Sequence record: MK907227.1
Direction: 5' to 3' (one strand)
Length of the DNA stretch: 44,219 bases
Origin: Escherichia phage vB_EcoS-12210III
In this document: positions 1,923 to 42,670 of the stretch, piece by piece
Position numbering within the stretch: the first letter of the stretch is position 1
How the letters are laid out: the number at the start of each line of letters is the position of its first letter
Position numbers and translations under genes: made by a program
Notes under the pieces: generated by a model
Databases searched by the model: none
Told to the model about the DNA's origin: nothing
Seen by the model: only the letters and a program-made list of their open reading frames with translations

Positions 1923-1997
1923 GCTCTGCTAGCTCAATAGGATAGTAGCAACGACCTTCTAAGTCGTAGGTTACTGGTTCGAATCCAGTGCGGAGCG
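1923..1997 (+). tRNA. tRNA-Arg, anticodon UCU (reads AGA); CCA encoded at 1998-2000
   Basis: Manual fold: acceptor GCTCTGC/GCGGAGC (one G-U pair), U8, D-arm with GG, anticodon stem ACGAC/GTCGT, loop CTTCTAA (U33, anticodon TCT), 5-nt variable loop, T-arm ACTGG-TTCGAAT-CCAGT, discriminator G. Confidence 0.7.
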
Positions 1998-4457: not shown

Positions 4458-5726
4458 ATGGTCAAGACAGACAGCTACGCCAATATCTTTCTAGGCGGCA
4501 GTGATGGTAGTGAGATTTACGGGAGCTTGCAGAGCCAAGCCCCTACAATTCTAGCTTCGCTTTATGCGGATAATGCGCTGGTGCGTCGAATAATCGACAC
4601 AATCCCGGAAACAGCATTAGCGGCAGGATTCCACATTGATGGAATTGATGATGAGCCTGCATTCTGGTCGCGCTGGGACTACCTAGAACTAACAAAGCAC
4701 ATCAATGAAGCCTGGTCATGGGCGAGATTGTTCGGCGGTTCTGCCATTGTCGCTATCGTTAAGGACAATAGGGCGCTAACAAGTCCGGTCAGAGAAGGCG
4801 CTGAACTTGAAACTGTTCGCGTTTACGACCGTACGCAGGTAAAAGTCCAGACTCGCGAGGAGAACCCACGCAACGCGCGTTTTGGTAAGCCACTAACCTA
4901 TCGCATCACAACTAATGAGAGCGATATGTTCTATGATGTGCACTACAGCCGCATTCACATCATTGACGGAGAGCGAATTCCTAACGTAATGCGTCGGCAG
5001 AATGATGGCTGGGGCCGCAGCGTTCTCTCCAGTGACATTCTTGACTCAATTAAGGATTACACCAACTGCGAACTACTTGCTACGCAGTTACTGAAGCGCA
5101 AGCAGCAGGCGGTGTGGAAAGCCAAGGGTCTTGCTGAATTGTGTGATGATAGCGAAGGATTTGGCGCTGCAAGATTGCGCCTAGCTCAGGTTGATAACAA
5201 TAGTGGCGTTGGTCAGGCAATTGGCATTGACGCAGAGTCTGAAGAATACAGTGTTCTGAACTCTGATATTGGCGGGATTGATGCGTTCCTGGATAAGAAG
5301 TTCGACAGAATCGTTGCGCTGAGCGGTATTCATGAGATTATCCTGAAGAACAAGAACGTTGGCGGCGTATCATCAAGTCAGAACACCGCATTGGAGACAT
5401 TCCATAAGCTAGTCGATCGCAAGCGTAACGCTGAACTACTGCCGATTCTCGGGTTCCTGATTCCGTTCATTTCAGACGAGCAAGAATGGTCAGTGGAGTT
5501 TAATCCCCTAGCGCAGGAATCAAGTAAGGATAAGGCCGAGATTCTTGAGAAGAACGTAAACAGCATCGCGACGCTAATTGCATCTGGCGCTATGGATATT
5601 GACGAAGCGAGAGATACATTGCGCGCAATCGCTCCAGAGGTTAAGATTAGTGACGGTTCAGTAGAGACAGAGGTGACGATTAGTGAAACCAGTAACGACC
5701 CGCTGGAAGTATCCGCAGATAATTGA
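4458..5726 (+). CDS. Portal protein
   Basis: About 422 aa directly after the large terminase; start set to ATG 4458 (RBS GGAG) rather than GTG 4428, which lies inside the hairpin. Confidence 0.75.
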   Translation: MVKTDSYANIFLGGSDGSEIYGSLQSQAPTILASLYADNALVRRIIDTIPETALAAGFHIDGIDDEPAFWSRWDYLELTKHINEAWSWARLFGGSAIVAIVKDNRALTSPVREGAELETVRVYDRTQVKVQTREENPRNARFGKPLTYRITTNESDMFYDVHYSRIHIIDGERIPNVMRRQNDGWGRSVLSSDILDSIKDYTNCELLATQLLKRKQQAVWKAKGLAELCDDSEGFGAARLRLAQVDNNSGVGQAIGIDAESEEYSVLNSDIGGIDAFLDKKFDRIVALSGIHEIILKNKNVGGVSSSQNTALETFHKLVDRKRNAELLPILGFLIPFISDEQEWSVEFNPLAQESSKDKAEILEKNVNSIATLIASGAMDIDEARDTLRAIAPEVKISDGSVETEVTISETSNDPLEVSADN

Positions 5727-36648: not shown

Positions 36649-37134
36649 ATGAAGCAGAAGCTGCTAATTACCGCGGCTACGGCTGCGGCGATATACATCG
36701 CAGCTCCGCTTATTGAGCTCGTGGAAGGTGTGGAGAACAAGCCGTACATGGACATTGCCGGAATCCCTACAGTTTGTTCCGGTATTACTGGTCCTGATGT
36801 TGTTTGGGGTAAGACTTACAGCAATAGGGAGTGCCGGAACCTGCTGGAGAAACATATCCAGATTCATGCTAAGTATGTTCAGGATGCAGTTACCTACCCA
36901 ATCGCACCGCAGACAAGGGGGGCGTTAATCAGCTTTAGCTATAATGTTGGCGGCTCAGCGATGAGGAAGTCCACGGCTGTAAGGCTAATTAACCAGGGTA
37001 AGATTGAGCAAGGTTGCAAGGCTCTCGGGATGTGGAACAAGGCTCGAGTTAACGGGAAACTGAAGGTAGTTAAAGGCCTTGTTAACAGGAGAAATGAGGA
37101 GATTAAGCTATGCTTAAGTGGATTGCAGCGTTAG
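36649..37134 (+). CDS. SAR endolysin (T4 lysozyme-like muramidase with N-terminal signal-anchor-release segment)
   Basis: N-terminal weakly hydrophobic Ala/Gly-rich segment (LLITAATAAAIYIAAPLIELVEG) followed by an E-x8-D-x5-T catalytic triad pattern (E...D...T in ELVEGVENKPYMDIAGIPT). Confidence 0.8.
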   Translation: MKQKLLITAATAAAIYIAAPLIELVEGVENKPYMDIAGIPTVCSGITGPDVVWGKTYSNRECRNLLEKHIQIHAKYVQDAVTYPIAPQTRGALISFSYNVGGSAMRKSTAVRLINQGKIEQGCKALGMWNKARVNGKLKVVKGLVNRRNEEIKLCLSGLQR

Positions 37135-37499
37135 TAATGTGCGTAGCTTTATCTGGATGTTCGGCAACGTCTGCGCTGACTGGTTTAATTGGCAGTAAGC
37201 CAGAGATTAGCGCTCAAGCTGGTACAGAGAACAATAAGGTTGGTGTCGGGTTAACGAACAAGGTTGACTCAAGTAACTCCAGTGAAGCCACAGTTAAAGA
37301 TTCTAAGGTTGGGTCACTTGATAGCTCGAGCGGAAAAAAGACTGCTGACAATTCGATTAAGGCCTCAACAATCACTGCTGAAAAGATTGAGATCACCAAT
37401 AACGAATCATCCGCACTGCCGTGGATTGGAACGGGAGCGATGGGTCTGCTGGTTTTAATTCTCATGGCATTAATCTTAAGACGCAAAAAAGCCTCATAG
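37110..37499 (+). CDS. Unimolecular spanin (u-spanin; N-terminal lipoprotein signal plus C-terminal transmembrane segment)
   Basis: Lipobox LSGC near the N-terminus and C-terminal TMD (WIGTGAMGLLVLILMALIL) followed by RRKKAS; this architecture matches the T1 gp11-type spanin. Confidence 0.75.
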   Translation: MLKWIAALVMCVALSGCSATSALTGLIGSKPEISAQAGTENNKVGVGLTNKVDSSNSSEATVKDSKVGSLDSSSGKKTADNSIKASTITAEKIEITNNESSALPWIGTGAMGLLVLILMALILRRKKAS

Positions 37500-37514
37500 T
37501 GGAGGCTATTTCTG

Positions 37515-37607
37515 TTACTTAATTCTAACTTCAACGTCGATATCGTACCGCATAGCTAATGGATGGGCCTTTCCATTAACTTGGCTCATCTTCATAATAT
37601 TATCCAT
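37515..37607 (-). CDS. Small hypothetical peptide (30 aa)
   Basis: ATG preceded by AAAGAGGA and a promoter unit; coding status uncertain. Confidence 0.25.
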   Translation of the reverse strand: MDNIMKMSQVNGKAHPLAMRYDIDVEVRIK

Positions 37608-37637
37608 TTTAAAATCCTCTTTGTTTTCTATGAAGTA

Positions 37638-37681
37638 ACTATGCTCTTTTTGTTTTTCTTTTATTTAGCAATTTGTGCTAT
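37638..37681 (-). promoter_or_regulatory. Conserved phage promoter unit (minus): palindrome 37665-37681, 22-nt spacer, -10 CATAGT (37638-37643)
   Basis: Family member. Confidence 0.45.
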
Positions 37682-37758
37682 CAGTACACGCCAAGATAAA
37701 TAGCTACGTTATCCATGATTGCAACAGCAGTCAGCATACCAGCGAAGAACTTAACCAT
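37681..37758 (-). CDS. Small hydrophobic peptide (25 aa; MVKFFAGMLTAVAIMDNVAIYLGVY)
   Basis: ATG downstream of a promoter unit and CATCGAAACGA leader; coding status uncertain. Confidence 0.2.
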   Translation of the reverse strand: MVKFFAGMLTAVAIMDNVAIYLGVY

Positions 37759-37795
37759 TTTGTTTTCCTTTCCTGTCTATCGTTTCGATGAATTA

Positions 37796-37839
37796 ATAAT
37801 AACAAAAGCCCACAAGGGGCTTTTAACAAAAAGTGCTAT
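37796..37839 (-). promoter_or_regulatory. Conserved phage promoter unit (minus): palindrome variant 37823-37839, 22-nt spacer, -10 TATTAT (37796-37801), leader CATCGAAACGA; overlaps a terminator hairpin (37805-37822)
   Basis: Family member with the first half-site degenerated (TTAACAA). Confidence 0.4.
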
Positions 37840-38175
37840 TTAAGAAAATAACTCCTCGTCAGTCATTGTTCCTATGTTCATCATCTCTTTTATGTACTTG
37901 CTCTCATACCCGCTAAGCGCATCGAAATTGAAATCAAACGGCCTCTTCAGGCTACCCTTGCTAACAAACTCACCACACTTACCATCAATGTATCCAGCAG
38001 TTAACATCTTTGCGCAAAACTCCTTTGAAGCAGCGCTGCAAAATTCCCTATGCGACAAACCTGCTGCTTTGCTGAATCTCTGAGAGTCCTTATGTTGGTA
38101 GATGAATCGCGCCAAATGCTGGCGCGTGAAGTATGAATACGACTCGCAGAAGCGGTACAAATCCAAAATAAACAC
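37840..38175 (-). CDS. Hypothetical protein (111 aa, GTG start)
   Basis: ORF from the track; GGGGTGA upstream of GTG. Confidence 0.4.
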   Translation of the reverse strand: MFILDLYRFCESYSYFTRQHLARFIYQHKDSQRFSKAAGLSHREFCSAASKEFCAKMLTAGYIDGKCGEFVSKGSLKRPFDFNFDALSGYESKYIKEMMNIGTMTDEELFS

Positions 38176-38178
38176 TCA

Positions 38179-39762
38179 TCACCCCAATAGTCGTGGATTA
38201 ATGTAAACTTTATCACCAATCAGGCACGTGTAGTTTTTCTCATCAAGCATTGGCAGCAAGTGGTCTTTAATCTTCGTCATTACTCCCGCTTGAGCCTCGA
38301 ACGGCTTAACCTTGCGAGCCGCTTCATATAGCGAACGAATACCTACTACTCCTTTCCCGTTTTTGCCTTGCTTAATCAGGATATCAATCAGCTTATTCAT
38401 CTCTGCATTGTCGCCAGCGTGACCCGCGGCGTTAGCGGATGACAAATAAGTCTTGCTAAGTTCCTGGAACATAATTACAGCTTCCTGCATTGTATCAAGC
38501 TCAATTTCTCTCGACTTCTGAGGGCTACCGCCATTTGGGTTGAACCAGTTACGCACAGTGTGAAGAACCGCCGCAATCCTGATTGCCTGCTTATCGAACT
38601 TACCCAACGCGCCTCGCAACATTGTGTGTGAATACTTCCCGCCGTCAGCAAGGTGCGGTTCCATCTCCTGACGCGCGCGGTTGAGATATTTCATTGCTGA
38701 ATTACTAACTGTCAACTTAACTTCTTGTTCATTCATGATTTCATGAACCAGACGGAAGTAGTTAGCCTTAAGCTCACCATCTATCGGTTCGTAAGTTGAC
38801 TCACCATTTTCATCAACAAACACACGCTCGCCCAGGAATGACTTTTCACGTACAAGCAGGAAACGTTCAGATACACCGATACCACGCGCGCCAGCGTTCA
38901 TGATCGCATTGATTGTTTCATCCTGTGCAATTACAGAGATGCAACCCATAGCAACAAAGCTCATATTGTTTTCTGCGTTAGCACGCGCAATTGACACGTT
39001 ACCAGCATCCCAGGCCTTCAGCACAAGCTCGCTGTTCGTTTTCTTCGAACCATCACCATAGGTCATACCAAGCAGTGAGTTGACGCTGGTTGCTTCATCT
39101 GATATTACAGCAAAGCTGCCCTGGCGGTTGTTTATTCGCGCAAGTCCTTCCGGTGTGGTATCTGACACAGGGAAAACGATATCACATAGTTTCTCGAGTT
39201 TTTCCTCTAGTTCCTCTTTCTCCTCAAAAAGTGAAGCCATCTCTGACGGAGATTTTTCCTGCTTCATCTCTTTGGATAATTCAGATAGTTTTGCCATAAT
39301 TTTCTTGCGCTCACGCTTTCTCACTTTATTTAGTCGCTCAGTCTCAGCAATCATTGGAGCAATTGAAAGTGAGTTGATTGCTGATTTACCCGTCGATGGT
39401 GGCTGACTCGTTACGACGTACAGCGAAGTCGGTTGCTGCGTTCCGTGATACTCAACAGTAAATCGACCCAGCATTGCAGCGGAAATACACCCCAGGAAGT
39501 GCATGTAAGCTGACGACTCAGGGAACTGAACAGAACGGGCAATATTAGCTGACAGCTTACCAACAACATCAATGTCATTACCTAGTGAGATTACTGGATA
39601 CTTGTCATTAGCTGCATCAATCTCGACTGGTGCTTTCCAGAATGATTGAGACTGGCGATAGCCATTAGCATTAATGGCGACGCGCAGGGGCGGGAGGTTT
39701 TCTGCGGCAGCAATTGCCATAACCTGTTCAACAGATAGTTTATCTTCGTTGAAATCGAACAT
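38179..39762 (-). CDS. P-loop NTPase, DUF3987-like (putative replication/primase-associated ATPase)
   Basis: 527 aa; Walker A-like SQPPSTGKS and Walker B-like AVISDEAT; its N- and C-terminal segments are paralogous to the protein at 42248..42670. Confidence 0.6.
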   Translation of the reverse strand: MFDFNEDKLSVEQVMAIAAAENLPPLRVAINANGYRQSQSFWKAPVEIDAANDKYPVISLGNDIDVVGKLSANIARSVQFPESSAYMHFLGCISAAMLGRFTVEYHGTQQPTSLYVVTSQPPSTGKSAINSLSIAPMIAETERLNKVRKRERKKIMAKLSELSKEMKQEKSPSEMASLFEEKEELEEKLEKLCDIVFPVSDTTPEGLARINNRQGSFAVISDEATSVNSLLGMTYGDGSKKTNSELVLKAWDAGNVSIARANAENNMSFVAMGCISVIAQDETINAIMNAGARGIGVSERFLLVREKSFLGERVFVDENGESTYEPIDGELKANYFRLVHEIMNEQEVKLTVSNSAMKYLNRARQEMEPHLADGGKYSHTMLRGALGKFDKQAIRIAAVLHTVRNWFNPNGGSPQKSREIELDTMQEAVIMFQELSKTYLSSANAAGHAGDNAEMNKLIDILIKQGKNGKGVVGIRSLYEAARKVKPFEAQAGVMTKIKDHLLPMLDEKNYTCLIGDKVYINPRLLG

Positions 39763-39792
39763 TACTTGTCTCCGTATTGTTTCTGAGCGGCC

Positions 39793-39836
39793 ATTATATC
39801 AACGACCGCTTATAATTCATTGTCAATTTGTGCTTA
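39793..39836 (-). promoter_or_regulatory. Conserved phage promoter unit (minus): palindrome variant 39820-39836 (hexamer TTGACA), 22-nt spacer, -10 TATAAT (39793-39798)
   Basis: Family member upstream of the NTPase gene. Confidence 0.5.
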
Positions 39837-40190
39837 TTATCGGTATTGAGCCTCAAAGCGGTAGTCGCCGCAAACTGTAACAAAGCCAACATCTTCGTCA
39901 CGATATAGCTGCCATGCGCTGCCCTCTTTATCGTAAATGTATCCAGCGAACTGACCAAGTCCAGCATGGAGATCTACTTGATATCTCTTCCCTTCAGTGA
40001 AGTATTTACGAATGGATGATCGATGATTAACATTTGTGCAGTAAATGGTCTTTGTCTTGATGTACTTGCCGCGCTCTTCAATGTTAATCCATTTTCCATC
40101 TTTCTTGATTTGCTCTACGCCATCTTTTACTCTGGCTTTGTATAATACGTTTTCGTTACTGATCCAGTTTTTGGTAATCGTAGTTGTCAT
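39837..40190 (-). CDS. Hypothetical protein (117 aa)
   Basis: ORF from the track; ATGA overlap with the upstream small ORF. Confidence 0.5.
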   Translation of the reverse strand: MTTTITKNWISNENVLYKARVKDGVEQIKKDGKWINIEERGKYIKTKTIYCTNVNHRSSIRKYFTEGKRYQVDLHAGLGQFAGYIYDKEGSAWQLYRDEDVGFVTVCGDYRFEAQYR

Positions 40191-40351
40191 TTTGTTACTC
40201 TCTTAGTTGTCCACATGAATTTGTTAGGTACTGATTTGCGCACGATTCGCACAACAATCTTGTCAACCTTCTGAACTAAACCGTAAATCTTCCCATCAAG
40301 TGACGCGCGGTACAATGCCTCTTCTATCGCGTCATGAAAGTTGTCGAACAT
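40187..40351 (-). CDS. Small hypothetical protein (54 aa)
   Basis: ATG 40351 downstream of a promoter unit and leader (RBS GGGAG). Confidence 0.3.
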   Translation of the reverse strand: MFDNFHDAIEEALYRASLDGKIYGLVQKVDKIVVRIVRKSVPNKFMWTTKRVTK

Positions 40352-40377
40352 TTCTTATCTCCCGTTTCGATGTAAAG

Positions 40378-40421
40378 ATAATACCGCATCCTTGCGATTT
40401 CGTTTTAGCAATTCGTGCTAT
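40378..40421 (-). promoter_or_regulatory. Conserved phage promoter unit (minus): palindrome 40405-40421, 22-nt spacer, -10 TATTAT (40378-40383), leader CATCGAAACGG
   Basis: Family member. Confidence 0.5.
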
Positions 40422-40569
40422 TTCGTGCTTTTTCTATCGCCTTGAGCATAATCTCGTGAGAATCCAGTAGGTCCTCATTAAACCAGTCACCGCAAGGCCA
40501 ACCCTTGCCGCTGTAGGCACTTATGACCTCAAGATCGAAATAATTTATCTCAGATGGTAATAGCATCAT
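40405..40569 (-). CDS. Small hypothetical protein (54 aa)
   Basis: ATG overlapping the upstream stop; 3' end overlaps the promoter palindrome. Confidence 0.3.
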   Translation of the reverse strand: MMLLPSEINYFDLEVISAYSGKGWPCGDWFNEDLLDSHEIMLKAIEKARNSTNC

Positions 40570-40805
40570 TTCACCTCGTCAAAAGTTGCAATTCCAGGGA
40601 TAAACATCACAACATTCCAGCCTGCAATGGCAATCCAGCCAGAATCGTTCTTGTGCGGTCGCTCAGCGCCATTAATCAACCACTCGTTCGGGATTGCCTT
40701 GCCGTTAATGATTAGTGGCTCAGCGTTGTATACAGAGCCCTTTACGAACGGTGTCAAAATCTTCTTGTCCGTGCTGGTGATACAGTTAGTGCAGCGAATT
40801 TTCAT
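40566..40805 (-). CDS. Hypothetical protein (79 aa)
   Basis: ORF from the track. Confidence 0.45.
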   Translation of the reverse strand: MKIRCTNCITSTDKKILTPFVKGSVYNAEPLIINGKAIPNEWLINGAERPHKNDSGWIAIAGWNVVMFIPGIATFDEVK

Positions 40806-40815
40806 ATCTCAATCT

Positions 40816-40995
40816 TCAAATAAATGGTAAACATTCAACGCATCCAAGTCCATCACAGCACAGGAATTCATCCTCTGACTGGAATTGCTTAGCCAAGTTA
40901 ATGTCCAACTTTCCGCGCAACACAAGGTCTGTGTAATCTTCGTTAAGCCCAATCAGTGCGCATTCGTTACGAAGTTCATCTTTATCAATCTTCAT
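40816..40995 (-). CDS. Small Cys-containing hypothetical protein (59 aa)
   Basis: ATG 40995 with RBS GAGGAG downstream of a promoter unit; C-terminal CCDGLGCVEC. Confidence 0.35.
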   Translation of the reverse strand: MKIDKDELRNECALIGLNEDYTDLVLRGKLDINLAKQFQSEDEFLCCDGLGCVECLPFI

Positions 40996-41022
40996 TTCTA
41001 TCTCCTCGTTTTTGATGAGCTA

Positions 41023-41067
41023 ACTATAGCCTCGCTAACTCATAATGTCTTTAGCAAAAAGCGCTAT
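41023..41067 (-). promoter_or_regulatory. Conserved phage promoter unit (minus): palindrome variant 41051-41067, 23-nt spacer, -10 TATAGT (41023-41028)
   Basis: Family member. Confidence 0.45.
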
Positions 41068-41354
41068 TCGTCAGATTTATGCATTGTTGCAGATATTGCA
41101 ATGATTCACATGATTATTGCACATACAGCAATATTGCTTCTGATGCAATGATGTTTTTGATTGTTGCGAAAAGTGAAATGAAGTGGTGGGTGAGTGAATG
41201 AAAGATGGATTGACTACCATACAAGTTGATTTTCATTCTTGGTGAGCCATTCTTGAGATATACGAGTAACCATCGTATACCAAGTGTCGTCACAAAAGTT
41301 AGTTACCACTAACCTACGTTTTTTACGCGAGATATACGCACGATATACAATATA

Positions 41355-41425
41355 ATATCTATATATATCAACCTTTTACTTTATTATTATTATTATTATT
41401 ATATATATGTATACTGTGTATACCG
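41355..41425. repeat. AT-rich ~70-bp repeat, copy B (with (TTA)6 microsatellite), inside a 540-bp non-coding AT-rich region
   Basis: Matches copy A at 24319-24388. Confidence 0.8.
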
Positions 41426-41699
41426 ATAATTGATTGGATAATTGATATGTTCCGCGCAGATATTCTGACACTTGTCAGAATGGGATGACATTGTAGGAAT
41501 AAAAAGGCGCATATATAGGAAAGCACTCCCAAAAACGGTACACAGGGGATACGGCACGTTTACAACCAGTGCTGACGCTGCCTTGGAGGCCGAAAAAACG
41601 TATCCGCGATGGAATAGACATAAAAATACGTTGACCGACACGTAAACAAGTGGCAAGATGGCAATCACTGAAACGAAGTAAACGAAACGAGGTATCAAC

Positions 41700-42248
41700 A
41701 TGCAGAAAGTAACACTTGGCGAAGTTATCCGTGAGATGGTGCGTAACGCAATGGCGTCTGAGAACGGCGAGTTCAAAGTTCCGGTAAGCCAGATATTCAA
41801 ACTTGTTCGCGGCAAGCCATATCCAGAAATGGAGTATGACGAAGAGACTGACGAGATCCTAAACCTGGCAGACAGGGCGATGCCTGAACTCAAGAACTCG
41901 TACATCTACAATACCGTGTCGCGAATGACTGAACTACGAGACGCCAACAAGCGAGCGCGCTACAAGTTCATCTGGATTGACGATGAAGGCGAGCAAACCA
42001 GGCCGGGTAATTTCGACGGCGATGGTGCTGATAAATACCTGGTAATTTATATTGAGAACGGCTCTCACTGGACTGGCAATCGTGAGAAGAAGAAGCAGGA
42101 AGCAGAGAAAGAGGTCGCCATCATTGAAAGGTTCAAGGCTCGGTTACTCAAGATCACACCTAACGTTATCGACCTGCAAGGCGAGCAGAAAGAGGGCGCT
42201 CTCATTGCCCTGGCCCGTTACTATGAAATGATTAAGGAGACTAACTGA
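41700..42248 (+). CDS. Hypothetical protein (182 aa)
   Basis: ORF from the track; leader contains AAACGAAACGAG. Confidence 0.55.
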   Translation: MQKVTLGEVIREMVRNAMASENGEFKVPVSQIFKLVRGKPYPEMEYDEETDEILNLADRAMPELKNSYIYNTVSRMTELRDANKRARYKFIWIDDEGEQTRPGNFDGDGADKYLVIYIENGSHWTGNREKKKQEAEKEVAIIERFKARLLKITPNVIDLQGEQKEGALIALARYYEMIKETN

Positions 42249-42670
42249 TGTTTAATTTCGATGAAGAGAAACTGACGGACGAGCAGATTATGAATATTGC
42301 TATCCAAGATGGGCTGCCACCGCTACTGGTTGCAATCAATGCTAACGGGTATCGACAAACGCAAGGCTTCTGGGGTCATCCCGATGCGTCAGAAGTATAC
42401 AAAGATGAAGCGCTTGGCGTTCTGATTAATATTATTAGGAAAATGGCAAAGAACGGCAAGGGCGTGCTTGGTATCAGGTCTTTATACGAAGGCGCTCGCA
42501 GGGCGAAAAGAATTAAGGGTGGCAATGACAGGCTAATGGCGCGCATTAAGGATGAGTTTATCCCAGCCCTAGAGAGTATGAATCTAGCTTGCCTCATTGG
42601 AGATAAGATTTATGTTCATCCGGCAATCCTCGAGGAGAGCTGGGAGCCTAACTTCAAAGTATACGAATGA
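42248..42670 (+). CDS. Mini-paralog of the DUF3987-like NTPase termini (140 aa; lacks the ATPase core)
   Basis: N-terminus MFNFDEEKLTDEQIMNIA...LPPLLVAINANGYRQTQGFW matches the NTPase N-terminus; C-terminus KNGKGVLGIRSLYEGAR...CLIGDKIYVHP matches the NTPase C-terminus. Confidence 0.6.
   Translation: MFNFDEEKLTDEQIMNIAIQDGLPPLLVAINANGYRQTQGFWGHPDASEVYKDEALGVLINIIRKMAKNGKGVLGIRSLYEGARRAKRIKGGNDRLMARIKDEFIPALESMNLACLIGDKIYVHPAILEESWEPNFKVYE

Follow-up and report, generated by a model that had tools for sequence, protein, structure and literature searches.

What purpose is served by a run of very short minus-strand genes that are interspersed with copies of one promoter-like repeat? The question is raised by positions 37,515 to 40,995 of our window, the complete 44,219-bp genome of Escherichia phage vB_EcoS-12210III, which is placed in Drexlerviridae, Veterinaerplatzvirus. 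The block is an ordinary small-gene arm of a T1-like coliphage, as is usual for the family: the leftward arm of the (presumed early or accessory) small-gene region of a virulent T1-like siphovirus, built of five compact promoter-gene cassettes. Early timing is assumed here from the literature wording 'presumptive early genes'. The block is convergent with the u-spanin gene (37110-37499, plus strand), with which it shares a bidirectional hairpin terminator (37490..37507, no strand), as the sequence and the annotation of relatives indicate. The best explanation of the whole, which we consider probable, is one of composite-promoter cassettes that are read by the host and encode a replication trio and micro-proteins, with the promoter units also acting as recombination sites.

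A preliminary description had given each gene its own promoter, which is wrong, as nine ORFs in five operons share five units: P1 serves o59-o79-o54b, P2 serves o54a-o117, P3 the helicase gene and o111, P4 o25 and P5 o30. All ORFs listed there exist (30, 25, 54, 54, 79, 59, 117 and 527 aa), as do the ATGA overlaps (o79/o54b, 40566-40569; o54a/o117, 40187-40190), but a real 111-aa gene with a GTG start was overlooked (37840-38175, phrog_2794).

The five proposed promoter positions were borne out. The motif AGCACNNNTTGCTAAA is found at each on the minus strand (41050-41065; 40404-40419; 39819-39834, a variant; 37822-37837; 37664-37679), followed 20-21 nt downstream by a TATAAT-like hexamer and then by a conserved start region. 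Genome-wide there are 23 motif matches at two or fewer mismatches (1.9 +/- 1.3 expected; attained in 0 of 100 shuffles) and about 16 good copies of the composite promoter, whose layout is aaAT-AGCAC-N3-TTGCTAAA, 20-21 nt, a TATAAT-like -10 and a conserved start C/ATCGAAACGA. The first part is a 21-nt direct repeat (DR), aaATAGCACnnnTTGCTAAAa, at about -52 to -33, including the palindrome TAGCA-N5-TGCTA centred at -42. The second is a rigid spacer of 20-21 nt leading to the TATAAT-like -10, usually with a G at -14 ahead of it, and the third is the conserved start C(-1)A(+1)TCGAAACGA, with the ATG about 25 nt further on. Of 57 sites from nine phages, 42 have a 20-nt and 11 a 21-nt spacer; the corresponding counts for 526 non-identical units (about 100 loci) are 484 and 42. 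G occupies -14 in 86% of units, TG occupies -15/-14 in 41% and A occupies +1 in 91%, while the distance from +1 to ATG is most often 25 nt. An asymmetric element, the repeat invariably points in the direction of its gene and keeps a fixed 20-21 nt to the -10. The units have no -35 hexamer at the canonical distance; canonical sigma-70 promoters number only seven in the window at a score of at least 10/12, against about 13 in shuffles, and none reaches 11/12. No mapped transcription start site was found in the literature for this phage or its relatives, so the +1 and -10 assignments are predictions. Nor are the units peculiar to this block or to early genes: the identical unit type precedes tail, lysis and replication modules, is used genome-wide and marks no temporal class.

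P1 (41006..41069; all five units are on the minus strand) has its DR at 41050-41065 (AGCGCTTTTTGCTAAA), a 21-nt spacer, a -10 of TATAGT at 41023-41028 that was also recovered by a consensus scan, and a predicted +1 at 41016 (ATCAAAAACGA). In P2 (40361..40423) the DR (40404-40419) is followed by a 20-nt spacer with the hairpin ATCGCAAGGATGCGgT, TATTAT at 40378-40383 and a predicted +1 at 40371 (ATCGAAACGG). P3 (39776..39838) is the variant, shared with TR2 and PsgS01F: its DR is AGCACAAATTGACAAT (39819-39834), its spacer 20 nt, and its TGa plus perfect TATAAT (39793-39798), a true extended -10, is enclosed in a hairpin, with the +1 predicted at about 39786. P4 (37779..37841) joins a DR at 37822-37837 to TGt plus TATTAT (37796-37801) and a predicted +1 at 37789 (ATCGAAACGA), and its spacer holds an intrinsic terminator, AAAAGCCCCTTGTGGGCTTTT (37803-37825). 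P5 (37621..37683) has a DR (37664-37679) adjoining the o25 stop, an A-rich spacer with no hairpin, CATAGT at 37638-37643 and a predicted +1 at 37631. Hairpins in the 16 units of the window have a mean z of -2.0, and complementarity around the -10 is -7.99 kcal/mol within units against -5.49 +/- 0.08 kcal/mol for permuted partners. Such stem-loops, in the spacer or around the -10, may insulate adjacent units.

Comparison with phage BEK6 indicates a further use of the units. P4 consists of the 5′ part of BEK6 unit 1 and the 3′ part of BEK6 unit 2, with the intervening 100-aa gene gone; it is a recombination scar, left when an exchange between two units removed a cassette. At the DRs of P2 and P1 homology to C119, PsgS01F and ACG-M12 breaks off, P2 doubling as a breakpoint against C119 and PsgS01F. 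Since these units of about 65 bp are repeated, they would serve as sites of homologous recombination at which cassettes are gained, lost and swapped. Several breakpoints sit at start codons rather than at units, so the units are one junction type among others.

The products appear to form three groups: a conserved trio, four mosaic accessory micro-proteins and two lineage-specific leftovers. The earlier view that none is recognizable was too strong; seven of the nine ORFs have strong PHROG matches, the 30-aa ORF has a weak one, and the NTPase belongs to Pfam DUF3987. Judged by PHROG families and dN/dS of 0.02-0.2, the six small ORFs of 59, 79, 54, 54, 117 and 111 aa are real genes (the range over the block genes is 0.01-0.22).

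The trio comprises o117, the helicase and o111, all on the minus strand. The product of o117 (39837..40190) is a core all-beta protein, apparently of tandem small SH3-like barrels, and its gene lies directly upstream of the helicase gene in every relative checked, including T1. The 527-aa o527 (38179..39762) is a P-loop helicase of the DUF3987 family (SF6, MCM-like), matching PF13148 (E=4.7e-42) and phrog_2373 'DNA helicase' (E=1e-258), with dN/dS of 0.01-0.03. The GTG start of o111 lies 3 nt past the helicase stop, and GenBank covers this gene by its last 55 aa only; the core protein matches phrog_2794 over its full length and is modelled as a winged-helix protein. In all relatives the tandem beta-barrel protein and the winged-helix protein flank the helicase. 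The literature describes DUF3987 proteins as replicative helicases with a C-terminal wHTH, and one member has been demonstrated to be a 5′-3′ helicase. Family annotation and synteny suggest that the trio most likely serves phage DNA replication, although T1-like phages have a separate primase and helicase besides, a point against this role. The likeness to DUF3987/SF6 helicases of phages and mobile elements lies in the strong Pfam match, the Walker A (PSTGKS), the length and the C-terminal domain; unlike them, the present helicase has no adjacent or fused primase but a beta-barrel protein and a separate winged-helix protein instead, and a 140-aa paralogue that lacks the ATPase core is found on the other arm.

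The leftovers lie downstream of the trio. The hydrophobic 25-aa o25 (37681..37758, minus strand) is putatively coding, with a good Shine-Dalgarno, and is restricted to 12210I-type phages and BEK6. This single independent homologue differs by two conservative changes (M->I, I->L) and zero synonymous changes, and searches of Pfam, PHROG and NCBIfam gave o25 no family match. The 30-aa o30 (37515..37607, minus strand) is what is left of a 60-61-aa gene (phrog_8121) after the in-frame loss of 29 internal codons, as judged from the BEK6 alignment, a Klebsiella phage homologue and a weak phrog_8121 match to the C-terminal half. We consider the chances even that P4, P5 and both ORFs are decaying remains of lost cassettes from which nothing functional is made. 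The segment 37515-37840 is missing from T1, ACG-M12, C119, Sd1, TR2 and PsgS01F, where o111 adjoins the spanin gene, and the chimeric P4, the codons missing from o30 relative to the 60-aa BEK6 gene and the lack of a family for o25 agree with decay. Against it, the promoters, Shine-Dalgarno sequences and frames of both ORFs are intact in two phages whose DNA differs by about 10%, the changes in o25 are conservative, and the o30 deletion is in frame and leaves both conserved ends.

Upstream of the trio sits a mosaic, dispensable-looking accessory set of four minus-strand genes whose presence varies among relatives. The 59-aa o59 (40816..40995; phrog_9053, E=7e-39; dN/dS 0.06-0.13; 70 homologues) is missing from Sd1 and T1; its CCDGLGCVEC motif had been pointed out before, and the cysteines of this C-terminal four-cysteine cluster (C46, C47, C52, C55) are indeed kept in 25 homologues. 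The 79-aa o79 (40566..40805; phrog_4448 over its full length, E=8e-42; dN/dS 0.08-0.22) is unannotated in GenBank and is missing from TR2 and T1. Of the two 54-aa genes, o54b (40405..40569; phrog_4548, E=2e-30; dN/dS 0.02-0.06 among close relatives) has its TAA stop within the P2 DR, and o54a (40187..40351; phrog_5407, E=4e-21; dN/dS 0.07-0.09) is found, among the relatives fetched, only in TR2 and ACG-M12.

An anti-defence role of the small proteins is plausible by context; that the micro-genes encode early effectors of host takeover or anti-defence, as the preliminary description proposed, is a tentative reading that we doubt on balance. In its favour, the four accessory genes are patchy among relatives yet under purifying selection, and cytosine methyltransferase genes fill the same slot in Sd1 and Bas11. 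Phage Bas11 is viable after deletions covering gene 54 and nearby genes, and its Gp54, a small non-essential protein from the equivalent block, is sensed by the host immunity protein CapRelSJ46 and, its authors suggest, may inhibit another defence (PDB 9AXB; Zhang et al. 2024, PMC11578894). The rare barrel fold of Gp54 recurs in o117. However, the window holds no sequence homologue of Gp54, and o117 is twice the size, conserved family-wide and helicase-linked rather than accessory. Pfam, NCBIfam and PDB sequence searches gave no sequence or family link to described anti-defence or takeover proteins, the conserved genes of the block point to replication, and of the shortest ORFs the 30-aa one is a remnant and the 25-aa one unsupported.

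How the units are read is indicated by the sister phage Bas11, for which promoter activity without infection has been published (PMC11578894). The 'native promoter' clone of its gene 54 was made with primer TZ-58, which begins at TAGCACTTTTTGTTAAAA, and at this point Bas11 carries a standard unit (N20, TATCAT); Gp54-FLAG was produced from this pBR322 clone in uninfected MG1655, and upstream escape mutations, the positions of which are absent from the text, reduced Gp54 expression (PMC11578894). Since the cloned promoter starts exactly at the repeat and is expressed in uninfected E. coli, host RNA polymerase suffices, although on a multicopy plasmid this demonstrates activity and not a need for the repeat itself. 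We infer that host sigma-70 RNA polymerase reads the units without a phage protein, as promoters of an extended-10-like kind whose activity is raised by the upstream repeat; this repeat may be read by the polymerase itself or by a host factor. The full TGn in only 41% of units counts against the extended -10 reading. The TTGCTA hexamer lies 22 bp from the -10 and cannot serve as a normal -35.

One candidate reading of the repeat is a site for a host global regulator, most plausibly Lrp, acting in a class II-like manner from -42 in place of the -35 contact; we hold this lead to be unlikely. Class II activators classically bind at this position, where the palindrome has its centre. TAGCAC(N3)TTGCTA fits the E. 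coli consensus yAGhAwATTwTdCTr at 12-13 of 15 positions, among them most of those that are strongly conserved, only 0.08% of window 15-mers reach 12, with the repeats a large share of those, and a host reader would suit both the expression seen without phage proteins and the presence of the unit in two unrelated phage families that share hosts. Yet the match arose from trying about ten consensus sequences and is no test, position 6 is an invariant C where Lrp favours A/T, and the regulator usually works through several sites. BLAST of 5,426 E. coli genomes found no host promoter resembling the unit, and no literature report was found tying lrp to growth of T1-type phages.

Quite improbable is that the repeat is an operator at which a phage DNA-binding protein (o111, the C-terminal winged helix of the helicase or its 140-aa mini-paralogue) switches units on or off or blocks read-through: the 5-N5-5 palindrome is of a type favoured by dimeric HTH proteins, the winged-helix o111 is kept in all Drexlerviridae checked, related palindromes TTGCA-N5-TGCAA cluster just upstream of P1 and are conserved in relatives, the most deviant repeat and best -10 belong to the o111 operon, and stoperator and enhancer options were proposed for phage TLS (PMC11447400), but one unit is active in uninfected cells, T4-like phages lacking o111, a Slopekvirus among them, carry the unit, its asymmetry, co-orientation and fixed 20-21 nt to the -10 suit a promoter element better than a roadblock, and these phages are virulent, with no repressor recognized in family searches.

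Our preferred reading, host-read composite promoters, can be set beside known systems. T4 middle promoters, which depend on a MotA box and on sigma appropriation by AsiA, likewise pair a sigma-70 -10 with a box in place of the -35, and the two boxes are similar in sequence, (a/t)(a/t)(a/t)TGCTTtA in T4 and tTGCTaaA here; however, the distance to the -10 is 12 +/- 1 bp for the MotA box and 20-21 bp here, neither MotA nor AsiA was recognized, and one unit is active without infection. With extended -10 (TGn) and class II activator-dependent sigma-70 promoters the units share the good -10, the frequent G at -14 (86%), the lack of a usable -35 and a palindrome whose centre, near -42, falls where CRP, FNR or lambda cI bind at class II promoters, but here the full TGn is present in only 41% and the upstream element is asymmetric and invariant over about 16 promoters per genome. 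Closer in organization are the promoter-early stem-loop cassettes (PeSLs) of T4-type phages (Arbiol et al. 2010, PMC2839356; Comeau et al. 2014, PMC4122927), repeated composites of promoter and stem-loop (60-100 bp) that are most frequent where variable regions hold small orphan genes, with the stem-loop in the spacer or over the -10. Recombination between copies removes or exchanges the ORF that they flank, and the unit that remains is a chimera, as for P4 against BEK6. In PeSLs both the -35 and the -10 box fit the consensus and the region upstream is AT-rich, whereas here the -35-like hexamer is shifted 5 bp upstream within a G/C-containing repeat, and the phage is a siphovirus of 44 kb.

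All five units belong to the TLS/T1 repeat family, known as 21-nt intergenic direct repeats of TLS that also occur in T1, Rtp and Rogue1 (German, Kropinski & Misra 2024, PMC11447400). They agree in consensus (aaATAGCACnnnTTGnTAAAA), co-orientation with genes, distance to the start codon (about 76 nt; 72-83 nt here) and central triplets (TTT, GAA and AAA, plus TAA here). That paper, which reported only three intergenic canonical sigma-70 promoters, treated the repeat alone and left its function open (stoperator, enhancer, UP-like). The published repeat is the upstream half of our unit, to which the present analysis adds the fixed distance of 20-21 nt to a -10 that has G at -14 ahead of it, the conserved predicted transcript start, the stem-loops around the -10, the use as recombination junctions and the occurrence outside Drexlerviridae.

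Five copies of a composite promoter unit (a 21-nt direct repeat, a 20-21 nt spacer, a TATAAT-like -10 and a conserved start) accompany the minus-strand small-gene block at 37515-40995: P1 (41006..41069), P2 (40361..40423), P3 (39776..39838), P4 (37779..37841) and P5 (37621..37683). The five promoter positions of the preliminary description are borne out, the minus strand carrying AGCACNNNTTGCTAAA at 41050-41065, 40404-40419, 37822-37837 and 37664-37679 and a variant at 39819-39834. P2, P4 and P5 match the repeat consensus aaATAGCACnnnTTGnTAAAA fully; P1 has AGCGC, and the P3 variant reads AGCACAAATTGACAAT. All five are co-oriented with their genes, and the distance from repeat start to ATG is 74, 72, 76, 83 and 76 nt. 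Genome-wide, the motif is matched 23 times at ≤2 mismatches (1.9 ± 1.3 expected), a count that none of 100 shuffles reaches, and the window holds about 16 good unit copies.

That description also had each micro-gene under its own promoter, which does not hold. Nor are the units special to this block, for further copies stand ahead of the tail module (11782), the lysis cassette (36044), replication genes (26046, 30720 and 33712) and genes of the rightward small-gene arm (42992, 43498, 43951, 299 and 1131). Within the block, five units serve nine ORFs (named here by length in aa) in five operons: P1 for o59-o79-o54b, P2 for o54a-o117, P3 for the helicase gene o527 with o111, P4 for o25 and P5 for o30. 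The 5′ flank of a unit often overlaps the stop codon of the upstream gene. The TAA of o54b (40405-40407) lies inside TTGCTAAA of the next unit, the TAA of o111 (37840-37842) makes up the AAAT flank of the next, and the TGA of o25 (37681-37683) abuts TAGCAC of the next. Stop codons built into the units are extreme compaction, which constrains protein C-termini and repeat alike.

The repeat itself has been described before. Phage TLS has 18 intergenic copies of aaATAGCACnnnTTGnTAAAA, all co-oriented and ~76 nt from start codons; according to its authors, T1, Rtp and Rogue1 have the repeat too. They recognized no more than three sigma-70-like promoters between TLS genes and left the role of the repeat open as a stoperator, an enhancer site or an UP-like element (PMC11447400). 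Our literature search found no transcript-mapping study of any T1-like phage, and a full-text search for 'ATAGCAC' returned noise only.

Aligning the good copies gives a three-part unit: aaAT-AGCAC-N3-TTGCTAAA, then 20 nt (21 in P1), then a TATAAT-like hexamer. Downstream of the hexamer come six mostly pyrimidine bases, C/ATCGAAACGA, a Shine-Dalgarno sequence and the ATG. Of 57 repeat sites, drawn from the window plus eight further phages, 42 have their -10 at 20 nt and 11 at 21 nt. When IMG/VR was scanned for the complete composite pattern, at least 119 stretches matched, nearly all on 40-53-kb contigs; among the matches listed, 526 non-identical units have a spacing of 20 nt (484) or 21 nt (42). 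Among the matches listed, 570 units have as central triplet TTT (263), GAA (209), TAA (42) or AAA (18), and show G at -14 in 86%, TG at -15/-14 in 41%, T at -12 in 77%, C at -1 in 80% and A at +1 in 91%, A at -11 and T at -7 being fixed by the search filter. The distance from +1 to ATG, again among the matches listed, has its mode at 25 nt. Of the five units, P3 and P4 have the full TGn of an extended -10, P1 and P2 have the G at -14 without the full TGn, and P5 has neither.

Nothing is conserved across the units at the canonical -35 position (17 bp). TTGCTA stands 22 bp from the -10, exceeding the distance of a -35 by 5 bp; it might instead be the -35 of another -10, an idea we rejected on finding no hexamer with A at position 2 conserved 16-18 bp downstream. 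The repeat contains the palindrome TAGCA-N5-TGCTA, centered at -42 from the predicted +1. At ≥10/12 the window has 7 canonical sigma-70 promoters, none better, versus ~13 in shuffled sequence; within the region they are likewise not enriched (16 versus 13.5 expected). Since the window is poorer in canonical promoters than its shuffles, the unit is taken to be the main promoter type of the phage.

Units also tend to fold. Over 16 window units the mean folding z is -2.0; hairpins are found in P4 (-11 kcal/mol), P3 (-12.1), P2 (-6.0) and P1 (-7.3), and none in P5. In some units, such as P3, the stem encloses the -10; in others the hairpin sits within the spacer, that of P4 being predicted to make a good intrinsic terminator for the helicase-o111 operon. 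In about half of the 526 units (among the matches listed; ~100 loci plus the window) the spacer pairs with the discriminator/+1 region, placing the -10 in a hairpin loop, and T1 units carry compensatory versions, GGGGAGTAA...TTACTCCC. The mean fold around the -10 in these 526 units, among the matches listed, is -7.99 kcal/mol against -5.49 ± 0.08 when downstream halves are permuted, and the complementarity of spacer and discriminator therefore appears selected; the effect is not in doubt, its significance being overstated since related units are not independent.

Evidence on what reads the unit comes from phage Bas11. Mutants of Bas11 escaping the CapRelSJ46 defence carry mutations 'immediately upstream' of gene 54 (Zhang et al. 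2024, PMC11578894). Gp54-FLAG was made 'from its native promoter' on pBR322 in uninfected MG1655, mutant versions giving less protein, and the phage part of the cloning primer TZ-58 starts at TAGCACTTTTTGTTAAAACC (PMC11578894). Upstream of gene 54 the Bas11 genome (JohannLBurckhardt, MZ501085) has a model example of the unit, with ATAGCACTTTTTGTTAAAa, the -10 TATCAT 20 nt after the 16-nt core, and tgcctc-A. The native-promoter construct thus begins at the repeat, which indicates, indirectly, that such a unit is active as a promoter with host components alone. In agreement with this, two standard units occur in the T4-like Slopekvirus phT4A, one with a 31-nt spacer, one helical turn longer. We conclude that the units are host sigma-70 RNA polymerase promoters, extended-10-like and -35-less, that are helped by the repeat.

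The phT4A cassettes are three adjacent small-gene cassettes on the minus strand (4559-5237 of locus L012) with T1-type -10 and leader; the repeat stands at 20 nt in one and at 31 nt in another, and in the third a canonical TTGCAT at 17 bp replaces it. Among the matches listed, two further unit matches lie on 144-kb and 179-kb IMG/VR contigs. The ORF downstream of one phT4A unit is found in T4-like phages only, for which reason a Drexlerviridae origin of the Slopekvirus cassettes was rejected: the promoter type alone is shared.

As for the factor that would help, the repeat agrees with the Escherichia coli Lrp consensus yAGhAwATTwTdCTr at 12-13 of 15 positions, a resemblance that makes Lrp a candidate reader, as a lead only. 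A stoperator of the mycobacteriophage L5 type would fit the orientation with transcription; we recognized no phage repressor, the site is locked to the -10 at a fixed distance, and a unit drives expression instead of blocking it. o111 as an obligatory activator is rejected because the unit works in uninfected cells and units also occur in phages lacking o111, and a scan of ten rightward-arm proteins gave no DNA-binding candidate. A canonical UP element is rejected, since by its consensus it would not have the G and C that occur in the repeat's conserved core. The MotA-box and sigma-54 readings are rejected on spacing. T4 MotA middle promoters are defined by a MotA box 12 ± 1 bp upstream of the -10, as opposed to the spacing of 20 nt (484) or 21 nt (42) in the 526 units among the matches listed. 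The sigma-54 consensus is TGGCAC-N5-TTGC with GG at -24, GC at -12 and a start ~12 nt downstream; AGCAC-N3-TTGC has a gap of 3 and not 5, AG for GG in all but one copy, and a -10 hexamer 20 nt after the motif. A host origin of the unit is dismissed, a BLAST search of 5,426 E. coli genomes having returned no match to a unit-like sequence.

Beyond the conclusion that the units are host sigma-70 promoters, a wider proposal would make the repeat-plus-10 unit a distinct, portable class of strong promoter for enterobacterial hosts, lacking a -35 contact and read via its -42 element by a host factor (Lrp-like) or an unusual polymerase contact, with a conserved transcript start marking phage mRNAs, and moving between Drexlerviridae and the T4-like Slopekvirus as a self-sufficient gene-delivery cassette. 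We rate this as speculative and rather improbable as a whole.

The ORFs listed in the preliminary description and their two ATGA overlaps are real, and a true 111-aa gene with a GTG start follows the helicase gene, missed there and in GenBank. o111 matches phrog_2794 over residues 1-111, and its homologues all begin MFILDLY. The gene called an NTPase is, by domain match, a DUF3987 / SF6 helicase: o527 matches PF13148 over residues 81-430 (E=4.7e-42; 145 bits, cut-off 27), has a PSTGKS Walker A motif, and matches phrog_2373 'DNA helicase'. The DUF3987 family is classed among SF6/MCM-like replicative helicases with a C-terminal winged helix, 5′-3′ DNA unwinding having been shown for one, distant, member. 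The helicase is followed directly by o111 in T1, ACG-M12, C119, Sd1, TR2, PsgS01F and BEK6, and preceded by o117 in the first six, the upstream side in BEK6 being outside the fetched sequence. Seven conserved genes have dN/dS of 0.01-0.22 against five relatives, indicating strong purifying selection. Four genes are patchy: o59 (absent in Sd1 and T1), o79 (absent in TR2 and T1), o54a (in TR2 and ACG-M12 only) and o54b.

Pfam and NCBIfam scans of the nine ORFs and a 140-aa paralogue gave DUF3987 only, and PHROGs gave, besides 'DNA helicase', families of unknown function only. For o59, o79, o54b and o54a, searches of Pfam, NCBIfam, PHROG and PDB sequences found no known relative. PDB sequence searches with o527, o111, o117, o79 and an o117 profile returned nothing usable, and Foldseek of o117 against viral models returned uncharacterized phage proteins only. 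The paralogue, a 140-aa ORF at 42248-42670 (+), is a 'mini' version of the 527-aa helicase with the whole ATPase core missing: over its N-terminal ~48 aa it shares 49% identity with the helicase, and over its C-terminal ~90 aa 44%. It forms its own PHROG (7327), is found on the other arm of C119 and TR2 as well, and might be a competitor of the helicase for a partner or DNA site.

The earlier guess that the micro-genes are host-takeover or anti-defence factors draws support from the accessory context of the four patchy genes; it has no family link, and those genes of the block that are conserved speak for replication. Methyltransferase genes fill the same slot in Sd1 and Bas11, and Gp54 of Bas11 is a precedent for the counter-defence reading (PMC11578894). 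The window has no Gp54 homologue, and searches for anti-defence or takeover homology gave only PHROGs of unknown function and no PDB sequence relatives. At least one of o59, o79, o54b and o54a may be such a factor, a possibility we regard as somewhat unlikely. The four C-terminal cysteines of o59 (40816-40995) are kept in 25 homologues. Its end, CCDGLGCVECLPF, is resembled by the end DCGCEFDPACKRCFPF of Bas11 gp50 (74 aa; 2520-2744 of locus L013), and the two may share a small Cys4 module among otherwise dissimilar micro-proteins.

The window comprises the whole genome of a T1-like, virulent siphovirus. Its 4-kb region agrees at 100% identity with 42 database records of vB_EcoS-12210I-type isolates, which are classified in Drexlerviridae, Braunvirinae, Veterinaerplatzvirus. 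Between the two small-gene arms lies a divergent, AT-rich region of 700 bp without genes (40996-41699); a perfect (TTA)7 run occupies 41381-41402, and there are a number of short AT-rich repeats. The genome end of the T1 and ACG-M12 records, where their homologous block is placed, falls at the equivalent of this region, which may be an origin of replication or serve in packaging. Three 15-bp palindromes TTGCA-N5-TGCAA (41087-41101, 41117-41131 and 41134-41148) closely precede the first leftward unit, and three to four such sites are kept at the equivalent place in Sd1, TR2 and PsgS01F. They share the core GCA-N5-TGC with the promoter repeat and look like putative operators or origin iterons. 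A tRNA gene labeled tRNA-Arg TCT in GenBank lies at 1923-1997 (+), among the rightward small genes and upstream of the terminase; Rfam found nothing else over the whole window.

Some database entries call for care. The GenBank annotation of MK907231.1 lacks o79 and o25 and cuts o111 to 55 aa, and in its rightward arm some CDSs begin inside promoter units, as at record position 41801 (window 43010), the start predicted from that unit being ~43064. The helicase of 'Pseudomonas phage PsgS01F' is 98.5% identical to that of the window, and T1-like helicases occur in 21 'Campylobacter phage' records. These host labels (e.g. PP134917.1, MG065687.1) look doubtful, and the phages may be contaminants carried with E. 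coli.

Traces of recombination are clearest at the smallest ORFs. Six relatives lack the segment 37515-37840 and have o111 directly next to the spanin gene; outside the 12210I clones the segment is found in BEK6 only. By alignment, o30 is a 60-aa BEK6 gene (phrog_8121) minus 29 internal codons, in frame; a 61-aa Klebsiella phage protein is a comparable phrog_8121-type relative. o25 differs from its BEK6 counterpart by two conservative replacements and no synonymous change, too few changes to judge selection. Between o111 and o25, BEK6 has one more gene, of 100 aa and served by a unit of its own. P4 is the same as BEK6 unit 1 up to and including TTCATCGAAACGA, and the same as BEK6 unit 2 from there on. 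Judged from these sequences, the chimeric P4 and the missing 100-aa gene are the product that would be expected if two units had recombined and the gene between them had been lost. Homology also breaks at the 3′ edge of the P2 repeat versus C119 and PsgS01F, where o54a is replaced or absent, and inside P1 versus ACG-M12; other breakpoints fall at start codons. The case for recombination consists of a single clear scar plus three breakpoints that coincide with units, and is no statistical test.

The finding is real and ordinary for Drexlerviridae, half of it already in the literature, and the block is a standard small-gene arm of the family. For the phage itself the result is housekeeping, with an annotation corrected and an 'NTPase' identified. 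The main interest lies in the recognition of a promoter with such geometry and in the mobility of its units. T1-like phages rank with the most common phages of E. coli and Klebsiella, their transcription is essentially unstudied, and their genomes are almost without canonical promoters. On our proposal, the 21-nt repeat, on record ever since the genomes of T1 and TLS were published, would form the upstream half of a promoter for host polymerase that is rigid and has no -35. Such a promoter would also bring with it a stem-loop and a conserved 5′ end of the mRNA, and would double as a recombination module. If true, this would provide a compact strong promoter part and a rule by which start codons and operons could be annotated across hundreds of Drexlerviridae genomes, and would explain the shuffling of accessory genes, including ones sensed by host immunity such as that for Gp54 of Bas11.

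The closest known analogues of the units are the PeSLs (promoter-early stem-loop cassettes) of T4-type phages (PMC2839356, PMC4122927). PeSLs have canonical -35 and -10 elements at normal spacing, whereas the units have no -35 at 17 bp. Demonstrated promoter and terminator activity and excised mini-circles are further marks of PeSLs; of these, promoter activity has indirect published support for a sister unit, that of Bas11. The two are alike in having a stem-loop within or over the promoter, which is present in P1-P4 and absent in P5, and in that recombination between copies gives indels or replacements of the small ORFs they flank.
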